Part shown: piece after piece, positions 14,444 through 49,567 of the stretch
Layout of the letters: every line of letters starts with the position of its first letter
Numbering within the stretch: position 1 is the first letter of the stretch
Program-made: the position numbers and the translations under genes
Notes under the pieces: generated by a model
Told to the model about the DNA's origin: nothing
The model's input: only the letters and a program-made list of their open reading frames with translations
Databases searched by the model: none
Origin: Centroscyllium fabricii
Taxonomy: Eukaryota
Assembly (NCBI GenBank): GCA_051313645.2
Contig: JBNRSN020000005.1
Location: forward strand, 312,728,001 to 312,792,000
Length of the DNA: 64,000 nucleotides
Direction of reading: 5' to 3'

Positions 14444-16689
14444 GCATGCAGCAGGCGCACACGTTTAACAAGAGGGTCCGTCTTGTGTCCACGGACATGC
14501 CGTCGAAGCAGAACCGGCCCCGGGTTGGTAAGCCACGTCGGCAGAGACGTCCCCGAAGTCGATTTCCGGGGGAAAGAGAAGAGTTTCTCGTGAGGCGTGC
14601 AACTGGTGGCTGTACACAAGAGGGAACGGGTAGCGTGGAGCGAATCCTGGAGGACCTGCTGCCAGTGGGAGTTTGGAAGGCCTTTGGATCGAAGGGCCAG
14701 GGTGATGGCCTTCCAGATGGTCCCATTACAACGTTCTACCTGACCGTTCCCCCGGGGTTGTAACTGGTCGTTCTGCTCGAGGCAACCCCCCGCACGAGCA
14801 GAAAATGACGCAGTTCGTCACTCATAAATGAGGACCCCCGGTCGCTGAGTATGAAGCCGGGAAGGCCGAAGATGGCGAATAGCGTGATAAAATGCTTTAT
14901 CACTGTTGCACTCGTCATCTCTGGGCATGGGAATGCAAAAGGGAAACGGGAGAACTCGTCGACCACAGTGAGAATGTACGAGTTACGGTTGGTAGAGGGG
15001 AGGGGACCTTTGAAGTCCACACTCAGGCGCTCGAATGGTGGCCTTGATGAGGTGCGCCCTGTCAGGCCTGTAAAACTGGGGCTTGCACTCAGCACAGACA
15101 GGGCACTCCTGCGTCATCGCCTTGATCTCCGCAATGGAATAAGGGAGATTGCGTGATTTGACGAAGTGAGCGAGCCTGGTGACCCCCGGGTGGCAGAGAT
15201 TAGCGTGGAGGGTGTTCCGACTACCCGACTGGGCACTGGCACACATTCCTCGGGACAGGCCGTCCGGGGGGACGTTAAGCTTCCCTGGCCGGTACAGAAT
15301 GTCGTACTCAAAAGTGGAGAGTTCGATCCGCCACCTGAGGATCTTGTCATTCTTGATTTTACCCCTCTGTTTATGGTGGAACATAAACGCTACTTACCGC
15401 TGGTCAGTAAGAAGGGTAAATCGTTTACCGGTCAAATAGTGGCGCCAGTGGCGCACTGCTTCCACGATTGCTTGGGCCTCCTTTTCCACTGAAGAGTGGT
15501 GGACTTCAGGGCCCTGTAGGGTACCGGAGAAGAAAGCGACGGGCCTGCCTGCCTGGTTAAGGGTGGCGGCCAGGGCGAAGACTGAGGCGTCGCTTTCGAC
15601 CTGGAAGGGGAGAGATTCATCAATGGCGTGCATGGTTGCCTTGATGATGTCTTGCTTGATATGCGAAAAGGCAATTTGGGCCTCTAACGGGAGCGGGAAG
15701 GAGGTAGCCCTGAGGAGAGGCTGGGCCTTATCAGCATAATGGGGAACCCATTGTGCATAGTAAGAGAAAAACCCCAGGCATCTCCTCAAAGATTTGGGGG
15801 AGTGCGGTAGAGGCAGCTCCTGAAGGGGGCGCATACGTTTGGGATCGGGGCCGAGGACCCCGTTCTCAATTACGTAGCCGAGGATAGCCAACTGGTTAGT
15901 GTTGAAAACGCACTTATCCTCATTGTAAGTGAGGTTCAGACGCTGGGCCGTACGGAGAAACCTGTCCAAATTGGCATCATGATTTTGCTGGTCATGGCCG
16001 CAGGTCGTGACATTGTCCAAATACAGGAATGTGGCCTGCAAATGATACTGGTCAACCATTCGCGGCTGCTGACCGTGAGAGGAGGCAGGGGACCGCTGTA
16101 CGCCATCGTCATGCTCTGCAGATGGCACTGGAAAACCAGGCCAAGCAACACAGGGGCGCAGAGCTGTGGGAGGACGTACAGTGGAAAGTTGCGGTATGTC
16201 GTCCCCTTCACAGTAATGGTGACTGTACAGCAGCCGATGACGTCCACAGTCTGGGACTCGGAGGGAAGGGAGATTTTACGATGTGTGGGCCTAACCCTGA
16301 GGGAATAACGGCACACCGTATCAGGGTGTATGAAGCTCTCCGTACTCCCAGTGTCGAACACACATCGGATGAGGTGCCCCTCTACCCGGATGGGCATCAT
16401 CGATAACATGAGAGACTGGTTGAGGGCCGTAGAGGCAAGTGTGGTGTGCGCGCTGGGGCCCTTGTGCAATGCAGAGTCCGCGGGTGATGGCGGCGCCCGT
16501 GATTCGCACGCGGCGGGCCACGGTGGCGTTTTGGTGAGTCGCCGAGAAAGCCGTTGGGAGGACCGAAGGGCTCGTGGCGCACAAGCGCCAGAATGCTGAA
16601 TTGCTCTGGAGTTGCCTGTTGCTGCTGCCAGAATCATTGTAGTTTCTTCTAATCTACCTGTTACTTCTGCAGCCTGTATAGGTAAGTTT

Positions 16690-26970: not shown

Positions 26971-27365
26971 CCTATGTTGTGGGGAAGAGAGGTCAGGTTA
27001 TCAAGGTTAGGAATGACTTTTTAAAAATTCTTTTGACATTTGTAGTGTGACAGGTGGTTAAAATTCACAATCAGGCTCTGTATAGAAGATTCCAGTTTTG
27101 CTGATATGCTTTCTGTTTTGCCAGTGGTTAAATTACTCAAAGCCACAGATTTCCGAGAGTTGTCCATTGGTGTTTCGTTACATAATCTTGATCAGTTTCC
27201 AGCTGCAAGTTAATGATTAACTGATGAATAGCACAAATGTGTGCGTGTATAGATCTATATATGTAACAACAGATAGGTAGGTTTGTAACACATATATAAA
27301 AATAAACATGCTATTTGCTATGCAGAACTGGCCATGCTGTTCTGCGGCTTTCGTCAGCCTATGCT

Positions 27366-30300
27366 CCCAGGAATACCTGTGCTATCAGGGGCAATCCCAG
27401 GAATACCTGTGCTATCAGGGGCAATCCCAGGAATACCTGTGCTATCAGGGGCAATCCCAGGAATACCTGTGCTATCAGGGGCAATTCCAGGATTACCTGT
27501 GCTATCAGGGGCAATCGCAGGAATACCTGTGCTATCAGGGGCAATCGCAGGAATACCTGTGCTATCAGGGGCAATCCCATGAATACCTGTGCTATCAGGG
27601 GCAATTCCAGGAATACCTGTGTTATCAGAGCAATCCCAGTAATACCCGTGCGATCAGGGCAATCCCAGGAATACCTGTGTTATCAGAGCAATCCCAGTAA
27701 TACCCGTGCGATCAGGGCCAATCCCAGGAATACCTGTGTTATCACAGCAATTCCAGGATTACCTGTGCTATCAGGGGCAATCCCAGGAATACCTGTGCTA
27801 TCAGGGGCAATCCCAGGAATACCTGTGTAATCAGGGCAATCCCAGGAATACCCGTGTTATCAGGGGCAATCCCAGGAATACCTGTACTATCACGGCAATC
27901 CCAGGAATACCCGTGCGATCAGGGGCAATCCCAGGAATACCTGTGTTATCAGAGCAATTCCTGGAATACCTGTGTTATCAGCGGCAATCCCAGGAATACC
28001 TGTGTTATCAGCGGCAATCACAGGAATACCTGTGTTATCAGAGCCAATCCCAGGAATACCTGTGCTATCAGGGAAATCCCAGGAATACCCGTGCAATCAG
28101 GGGCAATCACAGGAATACCTGTGCTATCAGGGGCAATCCCAGTGTGGTAAACCACTCTCTGTATATATATGTATATATTACTGTAATCACCTTTAACCAT
28201 GTTGTATAATAGTTCTCTGTGTGTGGTTACCTGGACATGCCCATGCTGGCCCTGCCTGTGACTCCTCCCTCCCAGGACCAGGTACATAAGCGGCCGTCTC
28301 CCTTCCCCAGCCATTCCTGGGGACGGTCGACTAGCTGGTGCATGTCCACCTTTAGCTAATAAAAGCCGATTGTTTCACCTCTTAATATCTCGTCTCTGAG
28401 GTCGTTAATTCGGTAACAATTTTATTAGCTAAAGGTGGACTTGCACCAGCTAGTCGACCGTCCCCAGGAATGCTAATAAAATTGTTACCCGGTTCACCCA
28501 GTTAGACGCGTATCCCCTCCCCCGTATAGCGGACATGGTAAATCAGATCGCGCAGTTTCGGGTCTTCTCGACTATAAATCTGAAGTCCGCATATCACCAG
28601 CTCCCCATCCGCCCAGAGGACCGTCTCTATACTGCCTTCGAGGCTGACGGCCGCCTCTATCACTTCCTCAGGGTTCCGTTTGGCGTCACCAATGGGGTCT
28701 CGGTCTTCCAAAGGGAGATGGACCGAATGGTCGATCAGTACGGGCTGCGGGCCACCTTCCCGTATCTCGATAACGTGACCATCTGCGGCCACGACCAGCA
28801 GGACCACGACGCCAACCTCCAGAAATTTCTCCACACCGCCAAAACACTAAACCTGACCTATAACATGGAAAAATGTGTGTTCAGGACCACCTGCCTCGCC
28901 ATCCTCGGCAGTGTTGTGGAGAATGGGGTCATCGGTCCCGACCCGGACCGCATGTGCCCCCTCCAGGAGCTCCCCCTCCCCCACTCCCTCAAGGCCCTCA
29001 AAAGGTGCCTGGGGTTCTTCGTCTATTATGCCCAGTGGGTCCCCAACTATGCGGACAAAGCCCGCCCACTACTTAAATCAACCTCATTCCCCCTGTCAGC
29101 AGATGCCCGCACGGCGTTCTGCGGCATAAAGGACAACATCGCAAAGGCGACGATGCACGCCGTGGACGAGACCGTCCCGTTCCAGGTCGAGAGCGATGCA
29201 TTGGACTTTGCCCTGGCCGCCACACTCAACCAGGCGGGCAGACCCGTGGCCTTCTTCTCACGCACCCTCCAGGGCCCCGAGACCCGTCACTCTTCCGTTG
29301 AGAAGGAGGGCCAGGCCATTGTTGAAGCAGTGCGACACTGGAAGCACTACCTGGCCGACAAACGATTTACCCTGCTGACTGACCAACGCTCAGTCGCTTT
29401 TATGTTCAACAACAAAGAGCGGGGTAAAATCAAGAACGACAATATACTGAGGTGGAGAATTGAGCTCTCCACTTTCAATTATGATATCTTGTACCTGCCC
29501 GGGAAATTCAATGAGCCCCCAGATGCCCTATCATGCGGTACATGTGCCAGCGCACAAGTGGACCGTCTCCAAACCCTGCACAATGACCTCTGCCACCCGG
29601 GGGTCACCAGGTTGGTCCACTTTGTGAAGTCCCGCAACCTCCCCTACTCCATCGAGGAGGTCAAGACCATGACCAGGAACTGCCAGGTCTGTGCGGAGTG
29701 CAAGCCGCACTTCTTTTGGCCAGACCGGGCGCACCTGATCAAGGCCACCCGCCCCTTTGAGCGACTCAGTGTCGATTTTAAAGGGCCCCTCCCCTCGTCC
29801 AACAGAAACGTGTACTTTTTCAATGTCATTGACGAGTACTCGCGTTTCCCCTTCGCCATCCCCTGCCCGGACATGACCTCTGCCACAGTCATCAAGGCCC
29901 TCCATAGCATTTTCTCCCTGTTCGGCTACCCCAGCTACATCCATAGCGACTGGGGGGCCTCTTTCATGAGTGACGAGCTGCGTCAGTTTCTGCTCGCCAA
30001 AGGCATCGCTACTAGCAGGACTACCAGCTACAACCCCCGGGGGAACGGATAGGTAGAGAGGGAGAACGCCACCATCTGGAAGGCCATCCTGTTAGCCCTA
30101 CGGTCTAAAGGCCTCCCAGTCTCCCGCTGGCAGGATGTCCTCCCCGAAGCGCTCCACTCCATCCGGTCACTCCTGTGTACGGCCACTAACGCCACCCCTC
30201 ACGAGCGACTTTTTACCTTCCCTAGGAAGTCGGCTTCCGGGACCTCGCTGCCGTCATGGCTATCGTCCCCAGGACCAGTCCTACTCCGGAGGCACGTGAG

Positions 30301-31431
30301 GGGCCACAAGTCGGACCCCCTGGTCGAACGGGTCCACCTCCTGCACGCCAATCCCCAGTACGCCTACGTGGCATACCCTGACGGGAGGGAGGACACAGTG
30401 TCCATCAAGGACCTGGCACCAGCGGGTGCCCCCGAGACCAGCCCTGCCCAACAGCCCGCGCCTGCCCACCACCCCCCCGGGCCACCGGCACCAAGGTACG
30501 TCGCTCAGCACGAGGCTCCAGCACCACGGTACGCCCACCCAGCACCTGCAGGCAGCACAGCATGGCCCCCGGCATGGCTCCATAGTGCACGCGCCCAAGA
30601 GTCGGACGATGAATGGGAGAGCGCGTCGCTAACCGTTACCGCAAGGGCACCGACGAGGAACCGAACGCCCCCGCCGACCCCGCTACAACCAACTCAACCG
30701 ACAACAGTACGTCCGCCGACCCCACCACCAGCGGTGCGCCGATCAACCAGGCAAACCAGGCCACCCGACAGGCTGGACTTGTAATAATAATAAAAAGAAC
30801 TGTCGCATTCACCCCGCCGGACTTTCGTTTTAAAGAAGGGGTGAATGTGGTAAAGCACTCTCTGTATATATATGTATATATTACTGTAATCACCTTTAAC
30901 CATGTTGTATAATAGTTCTCTGTGTGTGGTTACCTGGACATGCCCATGCTGGCCCCGCCTGTGACTCCTCCCTCCCAGGACCAGGTACATAAGCGGCCGT
31001 CTCCCTTCCCCCAGCCATTCCTGGGGACGGTCGACTAGCTGGTGCATGTCCACCTTTAGCTAATAAAAGCCGATTGTTTCACCTCTTAATATCTCGTCTC
31101 CGAGGTCGTTAATTCAGTAACACCCAGGAATACCTGTGTTATCAGGGGCAAGCCCAGGAATACCTGTGTTATCAGAGCCAATCCCAGGAATACCTGTGTT
31201 ATCAGAGCCAATCCCAGGAATACCTGTGCTATCAGAGAAATCCCAGGAATACCCCTGCGATCAGGGGCAATCCCAGGAATACCCGTGCGATCAGGGGCAA
31301 TCCCAGGAATACCTGTGTTATCAGAGCCAATCCCAGGAATACCTGTGCTATCAGGGGCAAGCCCAGGAATACCTGTGCTGTCAGGGACAATCCCAGGAAT
31401 ACCTGTGCTATCACCAGCAGCCCCAGGAATA
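27366..31431. repeat. 30-bp minisatellite (27366-28142 and 31123-31431) split by Gypsy 2
   Basis: Unit CCCAGGAATACCTGTGCTATCAGGGGCAAT with 29-bp variants; roughly 26 plus 10 units. Confidence 0.97.
28143..31122 (+). mobile_element. Gypsy LTR retrotransposon 2, gag-protease deleted
   Basis: LTRs 28143-28418 and 30846-31122; TSD CCCAG; PPT AAAGAAGGGGTGAA; ORF 28535-30052 (RT YLDN, RNase H, integrase) continues past a stop to 30784. Confidence 0.95.
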
Positions 31432-32457
31432 CATTCGCCCTCCTTAAGCACCAAATGTCGCCACTCCAAGTTACCAGATAACAGGAGGCTGAGCCCACTC
31501 CGTCCCTGCTTCCACTTGGACGTTGTGCCCACCCATCCTGCGGCTTCTCACTTCGCCCATGTGCTCCACTCCTGGCCCTATGTTCCGCCTTACAGAACTT
31601 GCTGGGAACAGCACGGGAGGTCCATTAGTTAGTAAATAGTGACAATTAACAGTAAAACAATGACAAAATTCTGTTATTGACTGATCTAAATTATAATACT
31701 CCCGCTTGACATTCAGCCTCTGGGATGTGCTGACATTGACATTTGAGGCCTGTGTAGATCAAAAGCTCCCAGATTAAAAGCCAATTAACTGATTTAAGAA
31801 TGTAGTTGTTTCTTTTCGGTTTCCAATTAACCAGATAAAACAAAACTCACAAAAGGGTAGAAGACTGTATAGAAGGCTTAGCCTTTCTAAAATGCATTCT
31901 GTTATGTCACTCCCGATAGTTCCACAAATCCATGTGATTTCAGCTATTTTACCGAAAAGGTGCTTTGTTAAATGATTTCTTTCAGTTTCCAGTCGCACTT
32001 TAATGATTATCGCACTTCACACATCATTCATGAATAGTAAATTAAAAACTAATTACTTGCAATACAAGCAGTCAGTTAATACTTTTTGTTTCTCAAAAGA
32101 ATGTTAACTAATTGACCAAAACAAATACCTATTTAAATGTAATTCTTTTGATCACAAATAGCAATTATTTTCATTCAATGCAATCAAGTGAAGATTGCTT
32201 TTTAGTAGCCCGAGCAAGCTGTGAAATTACTTTCTATTCATCGGGTGTATTTTTAATTAACTAAATAAAATACTGTAAAAATGTTATGAATAATTTGATT
32301 AAAGAGCTCTTTTCGATTCTAGAAATATCTCATATAATAGACAAGGAAAATAAATACACAGGCTTTCATTTTTTTACTGTCACGAAAAGGACATACACAA
32401 AAGCCAGAAATTATTTCAGGAAAAGTGTATCAAAAAGTGATAAATCAAGGAATTTCA

Positions 32458-44952: not shown

Positions 44953-47900
44953 TGAGGTATTGTCAATTAAAACGCAAAGACGAGTAGTTACCCAAACTAT
45001 AGGCTTTTATTAACTAACAATGGAGCTGGTCTCCTGATGAGTTCAAGGCGAGAGTGAGCGGGGGCAGGGCAGCCCTCACCTATATGCTCCGACCTGAGGG
45101 GAGGAGTTAGGGGTGTGGCTGACCTGGCCTAACATACAATACCAGGTGAGAACATCAACTATATACAATGATAATTACACGGTTACCACATACACCCCTT
45201 CTTTAAAAACAAGTCTGGCGGGGTGAACGTGCCTTCTGGTGAGAGGAAGAAAGAAAAAAAAACTCAATATGTCCATTAGCAATCAAATTGCGTTATTAGT
45301 CTCTCCGGCGGTCGCATCTGCCTGGGGGACCGCTGGGGTGCCGGTAATGGTGGTGCCGGTTGCAGGGCCGGGATTGAGCTCTCCACCAATGGTGCTGGCG
45401 GTGCAGTGTCCGATCCCAGGTCGTCAATCGGTGGTGTTGAGGGCCCCGGTGTGTATATGTATGGGGGCCAGTATTCGGTGGGTGGTGGCTGGTCGGGCTG
45501 AGGCTCGACTGGGGGTTCTGCCCTAGTGCTCCCAGCGGGCGCCAGGTCCCTGATCGACACTGTATCCGCGCGCCCGTCCGGGAATGCCACGTAAGCGTAT
45601 TGCAGGTTGACGTGGAGCAGGTGCACCCGTTCCACCAGGGGGTCAGTCTTGTGGCCGCGGACGTGCTTCCTAAACAACACCGGCCACTGCGCTGTGAGCC
45701 ACAGCGGGAGTGCTGTCCCCGAAGTCGACTTCCTGGGGAAGGAAAACAACAGGTCATGAGGTGTGGAGTTAGTGACGGTACACAACAGAGAGCGCATGGC
45801 ATGGAGCGCGTCTGGGAGGACCTCCTGCCAGCGGGAAACTGGAAGGCCTCTGGACTTCAGGCCCAGGTTGACCGCCTTCCAGATGGTCCCGTTCTCCCTT
45901 TCTACCTGGCCGTTCCCCCGGGGGTTGTAACTGGTCGTTCTGCTTGAGTCAACCCCTTTCTGAAGCAGAAACTGACGCAGTTCGTCGCTCATGAACGACG
46001 ACCCCCGGTCGCTATGGATGTAGCTGGGCAGACCGAAAATGGCGAACAGCGTGGTGAAGTGTTTGATCACCGTTGCGCTCGTCATGTCTGGGCAGGGGAA
46101 GCGTGAGAACTCGTCTATGACCGTGAGGAAATACGAGTTGCGGTCAGTGGAGGGGAGGGGGCCTTTCAAGTCCACCCTCAGGCGTTCAAAGGGGCGGGTG
46201 GCCTTGATTACGTGCGCCGTGTCTGGCCTGTAAAATTGGGGTTTGCACTCGGCACAGACAGGGCACTCTTTGGTCATAGCCTTTATCTCCGTGATGGAGT
46301 AGGGGAGGCTACGGGATTTGATGAAGTGGGCGAGTCTGGTGACACCCGGGTGGCAGAGGCGATCGTGGAGGGCCTTCAGCCGGTCAAGCTGGGCGCTGGC
46401 GCACGTTCCCCTGGACAGTGCGTCCGGGGGTTCGTTGAGCTTGCCTGGACGGTAAAGAATGTCATACTCGTAAGTCGAGAGTTTGATCCACCACCGCAGG
46501 ATCTTATCATTCTTGATCTTACCCCGTTGTTTATTATTAAACATAAATGCCACCGACCATTGGTCAGTGAGCAGGGTAAAACGCTTGCCGGCCAGGTAAT
46601 GACGCCAGTAGCGCACTGCCTCCACGATGGCCTGGGCCTCCTTTTCCACCACTGAGTGGCGAGTTTCGGGTCCCTGTAGGGTCCGGGAGAAAAACGCTAT
46701 GGGCTTGCCTGCCTGGTTCAGTGTGGCGGCAAGGGTGAAGTCCGAAGCGTCACTCTCCACCTGGAAGGGGATGGACTCAGCAACGGCGTGCATGGTCGCC
46801 TTGATGATGTCTTCCTTGATCCGAGTAAATGCCGTTTGGGCTTCTTCCGAGAGGGGGGAAGACATCGGCCTTGAGGAGATGTCTGGCCTTATCCGCGTAC
46901 TGGGGGACCCATTGCGCGTAATAAGAAAAGAACCCTAGACATCTCCTCAGGGCTTTGGGGTTGTGAGGTAAGGGCAGCTGTTGCAAGGGGCGCATACACT
47001 GTGGGTCGGGGCCGAGGACCCCGTTTTCCACCACGTATCCGAGGATAGCGAGCCGATCCGTACTAAAGACACACTTGTCTTTATTGTACGTTAGGTCCAG
47101 CCGTTTCGCCGTGTGCAGGAATTTGGCGAGGTTGGCATCGTGGTCCTGCTGGTCATGGCCGCAGATGGTCACGTTGTCCAAGTAGGGGAAGGTGGCCTGC
47201 AACCCGTTCTGGTCAACCATGCGGTCCATCTCCCTCTGGAACACCGACACCCCGTTGGTCACACCAACGGTGACCCGGAGGAAGTGGAAGAGCCGGCCGT
47301 TCGCCTCGAAGGCGGTGTACTGGTGGTCGACTTTCCGGATGGGGAGTTGGTGATACGCCGACTTGAGGTCGATTGTGGAAAAGACCTTGTACTGGGCGAT
47401 CTGGTTTACCATATCCGAGATGCGGGGGAGGGGGGAGGCGTCGAGCCCGGTGTAGCGGTTAATCGTCTGGCTATAGTCGATGACCATGCGCAGTTTCTCG
47501 CCCGTCTTAACCACTACGACCTGGGCCCGCCAGGGGCTGGTGCTGGCCTCAATGATCCCTTCTTTCAGCATGCACTCAACCTCCGACCTGATGAACACCT
47601 GGTCCCCTGCACTGTAACGTCGACTTTTGGTAGCAATGGGCTTGCATTTAGGGTTGAGATTGGCGAACAGTGCGGGGGGGTCGACTTTAAATGTGGACAG
47701 GCCGCAAGTTGAGTTCCGCGTTAAGTTGGGATTCTCCCGGCTACTGACGGTGAGGGGGGCCAGGGTTTCACCGAAATCCATCGTCACGCTCTTCAGGTGA
47801 CACTGGAAATCCAGTCCCAGTAAGACTGGGGCGCACAGCTGCTGGAGTACGTACAACTTAAAGTTGCGGTAAATGCGGTCCCTGATCGTGAGCGTGATGC

Positions 47901-49567
47901 TGCAGTAGCCGGTGACGTCCGCCGTGTGGGACTTTGAGGCAAGGGAGACTTGGTAGTGCGTGGGCTGGGTCTGCAGCGCGTAGCGCCGCACTGTGTCGGG
48001 ATGTATAACGCTCTCTGTGCTACCGGTGTCGAACAGGCAGTTAGTGGCGTGCCCGTCCACCTTAATCGCCATCATGGAGTTGGACAAGGTGTGCGGCCTA
48101 GCCTGATCGACGGTGGCTGAGGCCGAAGTGTATGTGTGTGAGTGGGTGCCCTCCGCTAGCTGGGGCCCCGGCCGCGGCAGTTGGCAAGATGACCGCTCAG
48201 AAGATGGCGGCGCTGGCGATGCGCCCGTGTCCGGCTGCTGTGGACAAGATGGCGGCGCCCGTGGTTCGCACGCGGCCGACCGCTGTGGATAAGATGGCGG
48301 CGCCCGTGGTTCACACGTGGCTGACCGCAGTGGACAAGATGGCGGCGCCAGGGGGTCGCACATGGCCGGTCGCGGTCGCCTTTGGAGTGGCAGCGCCTGT
48401 GCCGCACGCGCGGCCGTCCTCCGCCGTACAGTTAAAAGGGATTGAGGCGCCCGCGATTTACCCCCGGCTGACCACTGCTGGGTTGCGCTGCAACACCGTA
48501 CCTGGAGCCATGGAGTGGCATCGCTGTTCTCACTGTTGGGTCTGGAGGTGGAGGCTGGGCTGGACTTGCACACCTTCGCGTAGTGCCCCTTCTTCGCGCA
48601 CCGCTCACAGGTCGCATTCTTCGCGGGGCACTGCGCCCGCGGGTGCTTCCCTTGGCCGCAGAAGTAGCATCTGTGCCCCACCGGTGTCTTCGCAGTCGCC
48701 GCTGCCATCATGGGGGTCTCGGCCTGTCGCTGTGTCGCCCGGGGGTCAGGGATACCGTGTGAGCCGTGGTCTCCGTACGCGTCTAGCTTTCGGAGCGCTC
48801 CATCCACCGCATTAGAGAGGGTTATTGCGGACTCGAGCGACAGTGTGTCCTGCTCCAGTAGCCGCTGGTGGGCCTGGCTGGACCTGAGTCCAGACACATA
48901 GGCATCTCGGATTAGGAGGTTCGCTTCTTCCTCCGCCGTCCTTGCCTGGCAGTCGCAGGCCCGTGCGAGGGCTTGAAGTGCTAGTAGGAACTGTTCGTTC
49001 GACTCACCGAGTCGTTGTCTTCTGGTCGCCAGAACATGCCTGGCATAGACCGAGTGGGCCGGGCGCATGTAGCAGTCCTTTCATTTCTTGACCGCTGCCT
49101 CGTAAGTGTTGAGGCCACGGATAAAAGAATACACCCGGCCGCTGATCCGTGATGAGAGTACCTGGAGTTTGTCCTCATCACTCGTAGCCTTTACGGCCTT
49201 CATGTCGGCCTCGACCAGGCCAAACCAGTGTTCGAAGTCGTCAGCAGCATCAGGTGCCTGAGGGTTTATGTCGAGGCGATCCGGTTTCACTGCGTTACTC
49301 TCCATGTTTTAAAATGTAGTTAATAAAATTGACGTATCATCAATTAAAACGCAAAGACGAGTAGTTACCCAAACTATAGGCTTTTATTAACTAACAATGG
49401 AGCTGGTCTCCTGATGAGTTCAAGGCGAGAGTGAGCGGGGGCAGGGCAGCCCTCACCTATATGCTCCGACCTGGGGGGAGGAGTTAGGGGTGTGGCTGAC
49501 CTGGCCTAACATACTATACCAGGTGAGAACATCAACTATATACAATGGTAATTACACGGTTACCACA
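44953..49567 (-). mobile_element. Gypsy LTR retrotransposon 3, near full length
   Basis: 238-bp LTRs at 49330-49567 and 44953-45190 (about 6 differences); TSD AGAGA; PPT AAAGAAGGGGTGTA. Confidence 0.96.
45276..49305 (-). pseudogene. gag-pol of Gypsy 3 in three pieces (49081-49305, 46777-49068, 45276-46865)
   Basis: Two CCHC knuckles (CYFCGQGKHPRAQC, CERCAKKGHYAKVC), FDTGS, YLDN, SDASD, integrase with GQVERENG; no chromodomain. Confidence 0.93.

Follow-up and report, generated by a model that had tools for sequence, protein, structure and literature searches.

A lineage of Ty3/Gypsy retrotransposons without a detected chromodomain probably primes its own reverse transcription with a capped primer of about 50 nt, and the inverted arms found behind some of its 5' long terminal repeats (LTRs) would be copies of this primer that ran on too far. 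The primer-binding site (PBS) pairs with the LTR over 14 nt ending in AATAAAA, and where the sequence differs between families and hosts, compensating changes preserve this pairing. From sequence, we infer that transcription starts at about A28313, that the RNA is cut after AAUAAAA and that the attached primer is used as a template; by analogy with Tf1, RNase H may be the nuclease that makes the cut. Evidence against a primer template comes from arms that run on through U3; these make up 42 of 100 copies measured for family 1, 12 of 30 for family 4 and 18 of 30 for family 5. A wider reading, which we regard as tenable without quite favoring it, is that a widespread animal Gypsy lineage uses a capped primer of about 50 nt cut after its own poly(A) signal, with the pairing masking that signal, and that failed copies archive the start site and primer end for many families and seed palindromic LTR insertions.

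The window element and its inverted arm

The window, meaning the whole stretch of 64,000 nt of Centroscyllium fabricii DNA that was analyzed, holds a Ty3/Gypsy element at 28143-31122 on the plus strand, whose 5' and 3' LTRs differ by four substitutions and one indel. Its features are as follows.

28138-28142, plus: left target-site duplication (TSD) CCCAG, inside a 30-bp minisatellite (27365-28142)
28143-28418, plus: 5' LTR (TG...CA)
28283-28290, plus: predicted TATA-like motif TACATAAG; similar motifs lie in related junctions
28311-28317, plus: initiator-like CCATTCC; A28313 is the candidate transcription start and primer 5' end
28351-28364, plus: 14 nt pairing with the PBS, ending in AATAAA plus A; putative primer 3' end, cut before G28365
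28419, plus: lone spacer base (A) between LTR and PBS
28420-28433, plus: normal 14-nt PBS, complement of the element's own LTR, no TGG
28434-28472, plus: abnormal extension, an antisense copy of R back to the initiator
28472-28489, plus: 18-nt fold-back copy of the LTR/PBS junction, in the sense of the primer/minus-strand junction
28490-30784, plus: pol remnant with 5'-truncated reverse transcriptase (RT), RNase H and integrase; in-frame stop near 30050
30832-30841, plus: polypurine tract, 4 nt ahead of the 3' LTR
30846-31122, plus: 3' LTR
31123-31127, plus: right TSD CCCAG; the minisatellite runs on to 31432

The hallmarks of Ty3/Gypsy elements are present, namely direct LTRs with TG...CA ends, a polypurine tract and a short TSD. 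Pfam detects RT, RNase H (RH) and integrase (rve) in the window element, protease (PR), RT and RH in the family copy L083, and all four domains in the related copy L082; the order PR-RT-RH-IN holds across the three, and the top PDB match is Ty3. No Pfam Chromo match was obtained at E 0.001 in the C terminus of the window element or in the 1,425-aa frame of L082. The family element measures 4.55-4.66 kb, with a 277-bp LTR and a single gag-pol frame. Its nearest named homologues are found in rays and sharks (77-81% identity), followed by a sea anemone (63%) and a nematode (58%), and relatives were not found in viral contigs. Rfam hairpin matches were below threshold only, the best being MIR9563 (59 bits versus 90).

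Two further elements of the same lineage lie on the minus strand of the window, with 5' LTR ends at 49330 and 22643. Their pol remnants (45532-47867 and 14444-16192) are 72-77% identical to L083, and both carry a normal self-complementary PBS; the second (22643) was used as family 5. The unit of the minisatellite that surrounds the plus-strand element (27365-28142 and 31123-31432) contains CCCAGGAAT, which equals 9 nt at the arm end (28463-28471) and is probably a coincidence.

An earlier note on this DNA had described an antisense copy of R behind the 5' LTR, and indeed the reverse complement of 28312-28364 matches 28420-28472 everywhere but at 28441, or at 52 of 53 positions. The fold-back reported to follow it is equally clear, as 28472-28489 is the reverse complement of 28412-28429. 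Since G28472 is compatible with both the arm and the fold-back, the arm ends at 52 or 53 nt. Compared with the natural copy L083, about 1.63 kb comprising gag, protease and the start of RT is then absent and the sequence resumes in RT, in agreement with the proposed loss of gag and protease. Normal integration, likewise proposed, is borne out by the duplication of CCCAG at both ends of the element, in register within the 30-bp minisatellite.

A primer-binding site complementary to the LTR

The normal junction, formed by the LTR, an A, the 14 nt and TTTAAC, is present in 3,263 exact genome copies with the gag start close behind, and its 14 nt, read in antisense, match the LTR up to and including AATAAAA. 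An arm of 10-14 nt had been anticipated for intact copies; 14 nt is what they have, so the 53 nt of the window copy are not the normal structure. Between the LTR and the gag start, a TGG-type tRNA site was present in none of the 20 normal copies read, a test that covered sites complementary to a tRNA 3' end.

Sixteen junctions of the family and its relatives in the same genome, taken from fetched loci and the window, share this layout, with the 1-nt offset and GCC always next. Compensating changes in the PBS/LTR pairing occur at positions 6 and 8-13. In this table the search itself determined pairs 1-10, leaving only positions 11-13 free; at these, 47 of 48 cells are paired. In 12 of the 16 junctions a TATA-like motif is found 81-94 nt upstream of the poly(A)-signal end. 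The predicted fold of the leader, computed for one family only, combines the primer duplex with a stacked U5 stem (z -2.7, equaled by 4 of 200 shuffles).

The pairing extends to other hosts. From other assemblies, 88 loci were selected by RT similarity alone, and the 48 with at least 1.6 kb upstream were scanned. A complement of at least 10 nt was present in 27 of the 48, and in 23 it ended on a poly(A)-like TAAA motif with the 1-nt offset, compared with 1 of 48 in a control region. The feature can therefore be regarded as lineage-wide. The 23 loci come from 11 assemblies, nine of them from a single one, and carry about 17 different PBS sequences. Where an LTR pair lay at the expected distance, 18 of 20 loci were positive, and most negatives are loci without an LTR pair. 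Across the 16 junctions of the shark and the 23 positive outside loci, the pairing is 13-19 nt long and ends at the poly(A) signal. As a separate observation, eight contigs from bacterial genome bins (L316-L323) carry these retrotransposons, three of them with the LTR/PBS pairing, probably as host DNA contamination of the bins.

It could be argued that the conserved pairing merely hides the poly(A) signal of the 5' LTR and that something else primes, as a poly(A)-like motif almost always closes the paired stretch. We consider this most improbable. The pairing begins 1 nt from the LTR end, the 20 normal copies offer no TGG-type tRNA site in its place, and the arms would be left unexplained. In addition, one locus (L307) has, some 1,430 nt upstream of its RT match, a 15-nt PBS pairing whose target ends in GAAGA before GCC, and the pairing thus persists without a poly(A)-like motif. 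Hiding of the signal could still be a second role of the pairing beside priming.

Extended arms recur and stop at the initiator

The earlier note treated the arm as a single fossil. The arm is real, but it is a recurrent product of the family: 269 exact extended junctions are present genome-wide, or 7.6% of the 3,532 exact junctions of family 1, against 0 for a reversed-pattern control, so chance does not account for it. Arm lengths were measured on the first 100 of the 269 copies; an initial DNA search, ranked by score, over-samples long arms and was left out of the counts. Of these 100 arms, 52 end at 19-54 nt, none at 55-67, six at 68-161 and 42 at 170 nt or beyond. Twenty-seven end at 50-53 nt, with a mode of 52 that corresponds to A28313, 30 nt after TACATAAG. 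Dropping one member from each of four pairs with identical junctions leaves 54 non-long events, distributed as 24 at 50-54 nt, 24 at 19-49 and six at 68-161, and the clustering at 50-54 compared with a uniform distribution has a scan-corrected P of about 4e-19. The endpoints in other copies are thus not random, which the earlier note had named as an outcome that would count against its reading. Its claim that the arm ends at the predicted start describes the modal end well but not the 42 arms that run past it. A tail on the short side and a cliff on the long side are what an RNA 5' end predicts.

The base that follows an arm of 50-53 nt is C in 14 of 24 cases, compared with 3 of 20 for the other arms (Fisher P 0.005). 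Reverse transcriptases add C in a reaction directed by the cap, and the excess, noticed post hoc, fits such an addition. The earlier interpretation, an over-copied self primer whose copy ends at the start site, is supported by these results.

Beyond the arm, landing sites vary: some copies resume just past the PBS and others far into pol, while further ones land on the antisense strand, at the polypurine tract, or in the last 7-60 nt of U5 with the TSD directly behind; automatic mapping of these sites is blurred by subfamily differences. The proposal that the arm causes the deletion is thereby narrowed, as large deletions are frequent but not obligatory, with L046, L089, L090 and L147 resuming within about 25 nt of the LTR. 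A TSD is present in 22 of 30 copies with short or intermediate arms and a candidate right end, which identifies these copies as integrase products rather than later rearrangements.

These features bear on whether the arms could be assembly or long-read fold-back artefacts, or rearrangements made after insertion. The window junction itself is bridged by none of the contigs listed from four public runs, and the contigs of these runs that cover the arm can also fit the LTR. Against this stand hundreds of distinct junctions, intact 5-bp TSDs around the abnormal products and ends tied to the initiator in several families, so that the artefact envisaged in the earlier note is not upheld and its probability is negligible.

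A different template is also conceivable. As the main alternative, self-priming could be true while the arm is copied from the 5' end of another transcript that had not been cut, or from a short LTR-only transcript acting in trans, in which case it would record the start site and not the primer length, and the attached primer might be short. This reading likewise predicts the cliff at the initiator and the C bias. An extra strand transfer would be required, however, whereas the arms join the PBS seamlessly and, of the short arms compared, a single one departs from its own subfamily at position 20. We regard this second template as unlikely; mismatches between an arm and its own LTR do not separate RNA from DNA templates.

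Initiator positions predicted in related families

The initiator positions of related families were listed first and the arm searches run afterwards. For family 2 (predicted 53; 21 matches and one earlier locus), eight arms end at 52/53, all with one common landing site and 7-nt homology and hence counted as one event; other arms end at 24-49 and 93, and four are long. Family 4 has a tandem initiator at 52 and 56, and the first 30 of its 120 copies include three ends at 52 with one landing, three at 53, and one each at 56 and 57, the remainder being seven shorter, three intermediate and 12 long arms. The first 30 of 53 copies in family 5 (predicted 49) gave ends at 50, 50 and 54, together with seven shorter, two intermediate and 18 long arms, and none at 52-53. 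Family 3 (predicted 63) yielded arms of 31, 49 and 90 nt and one long arm, with none at 63 in these small numbers, and family 6, a small family, yielded long arms only; one of its arms, which measures 64 nt when set against its own LTR but about 194 nt when set against a sister copy, was scored as a miss. Pooling these families gives 31 events of 19-66 nt, of which 9 coincide with the initiator A or the preceding base, compared with 1.8 expected (P 1.5e-5); the test collapses shared landings and omits a second family-5 candidate at 60, the inclusion of which would slightly raise the expectation.

These predictions also help to judge whether all arms could be fold-backs of plus-strand DNA on its own R, the short ones halting at a structural pause. 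The family-1 initiator does lie within a DNA hairpin of -8.5 kcal/mol. The 3' foot of that hairpin is at about 43 nt, however, whereas the mode of 52 falls in the loop, and families 2, 4 and 5 fold weakly (-0.8, -0.1 and -2.6) yet still stop at their own initiators. The C bias would also be left without a reason. The long palindromes described below do show extension on a template other than the primer; as an account of all arms, DNA fold-back is quite unlikely.

Extended junctions are far rarer in family 2 than in family 1 (21 versus 7,500 normal, compared with 269 versus 3,263), a gap of about 25-fold for which the difference in search pattern length (31 nt versus 26 nt) is an unlikely cause. 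A family-2 count of 759 from a first pattern was dropped, as 28 of 30 loci turned out to belong to a normal subfamily; a longer pattern gave the 21. In a tree, one normal family-2 copy sits inside the arm-53 group, which, with one copy and unsettled bootstrap, favors recurrent arms rather than a clonal subfamily. Four family-2 copies (L189 and L196-L198) have arms of 49 nt whose end lies within a short palindrome, where the sequence turns back into sense R-U5, a sequence-driven switch that is distinct from the initiator stop.

Long arms and palindromes

Many long arms form palindromes of the layout U3-R-U5-A-R'-U3', about 500 bp in length, of which L002 is an example; 24 of the 42 long arms are without a recognizable own LTR start. 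Among 15 palindromes with both ends, a TSD is present in 10. In 14 of the 15, across several subfamilies, the copy's own U3 is the closest or second-closest match to the U3 of the arm, a point in favor of DNA fold-back. As they run through U3, beyond the 52 nt of the primer, a second template that is not the primer must also be used. The palindromes are evidence that the antisense R end can find a partner and be extended on it, whether this is its own R, another plus strand or the RNA 3' end. Three of the 15 run on into the antisense polypurine tract, which indicates that the end can transfer to another template and is a point in favor of a second transcript as template. With several U3 subfamilies, TG...CA ends and 5-bp TSDs, the palindromes look like repeated by-products and not like one amplified family.

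A possible course of priming and failure

Returning to the over-copied primer, the following course can be hypothesized. A transcript starting at about A28313 would pair with the PBS through its nt 39-52, and a cut after AAUAAAA would release a capped primer of about 52 nt. All that would then be left as a repeat for the first strand transfer is the brief segment between G28365 and the poly(A) site. Plus-strand synthesis would usually retain a 14-nt copy of the primer, and occasionally RT may read on along it, as far as the cap. The extended 3' end, now without a proper partner for second strand transfer, would land elsewhere in the element by short homology; in the window copy it would have formed the 18-nt fold-back first, then jumped into RT, and the product would have integrated normally. 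Alternatively, the antisense R end may anneal to a copy of R that runs on into U3, giving the palindrome U3-R-U5-A-R'-U3', which would also be integrated.

Comparison with known systems and implications

Self-priming has precedents, and among Gypsy elements it is described for the Tf1/sushi chromoviruses. The lineage resembles Tf1/Tf2 and the Tf1/sushi group, including Tcn1, in a PBS that adjoins the 5' LTR and pairs with the element's own RNA, with no tRNA involved. Tf1/sushi elements have a three-duplex pretzel structure; here a primer duplex with a U5 stem beside it is predicted for one family. The Tf1 self primer is said, in the title of one paper, not to be removed. In Tf1, as described in PMC7175516, the PBS is paired with nt 1-11 of the RNA, which RNase H then cleaves between nt 11 and nt 12, whereas here nt ~39-52 would pair, given the putative start, and the cut would follow the poly(A) signal, leaving a primer of about 50 nt. 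According to two reports, Tf1/sushi chromoviruses, Tcn1 and the copia TAR lineage all share self-priming (bioRxiv 10.1101/2022.12.06.519325; PMC6317226). Unlike the Tf1/sushi chromoviruses, the lineage studied here has no detected chromodomain, and its paired stretch, given the putative start, is internal and not at the 5' end; it is therefore not a member of that group. Similarly, TAR-lineage Ty1/copia elements such as Houba and Osr-1 are predicted self-primers with a PBS complementary to their own 5' LTR (PMC6317226, in part), but they have the copia domain order and plant hosts.

By size and layout, with short LTRs, about 4.5 kb and one gag-pol frame, the lineage can be likened to Mag-lineage Gypsy elements; the teleost Mag1 and Mag2 are given as 4.7-4.8 kb with LTRs of about 210 bp and 1,330-1,365 aa in PMC11117352. 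Mosquito Mag elements differ in having tRNA-Leu/Ser/Arg PBSs, according to an excerpt of PMC3286476. For many marine Gypsy clades, passages of PMC6238403 give no PBS description. In the open full-text literature, no account of a PBS paired to a poly(A) signal or of such arms was found, and a prior description is possible, for example in subscription journals, Repbase Reports, or primary Tf1/sushi papers or their supplements.

A different self-priming geometry in an abundant chromodomain-less lineage would, if true, imply an independent origin or a much older mechanism. It bears on whether hairpin priming came before tRNA priming, which a passage of PMC3601003 treats as an open question. Annotation that relies on tRNA-based PBSs would miss such elements, and tRNA fragments presumably could not silence them through the PBS. 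The same passage states that U3/R boundary information is missing for most LTRs (PMC3601003); the arms let these boundaries be read from DNA alone. On the wider reading given at the outset, failed copies would constitute a genomic archive of start site and primer end for which RNA is not needed, and palindromic LTR insertions, made by integrase in large numbers, would allow LTR elements to give rise to foldback-like DNA and to long hairpin transcripts.

The palindromic copies of about 500 bp do resemble inverted-repeat elements of the foldback or MITE-like kind, and L058, with an LTR-arm-PPT-LTR structure and a TSD, resembles TRIMs. Unlike TRIM or foldback families, the palindromes comprise several U3 subfamilies and have TG...CA ends and 5-bp TSDs. 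L058 and L148 have different flanks and share this TRIM-like layout with an arm of 50 nt, L148 being cut off within its second LTR; the layout is possibly mobile in trans. Lastly, L018/L021 and L095 form tandem units of partial pol and a palindromic LTR, which suggests local duplication of arm-bearing copies.
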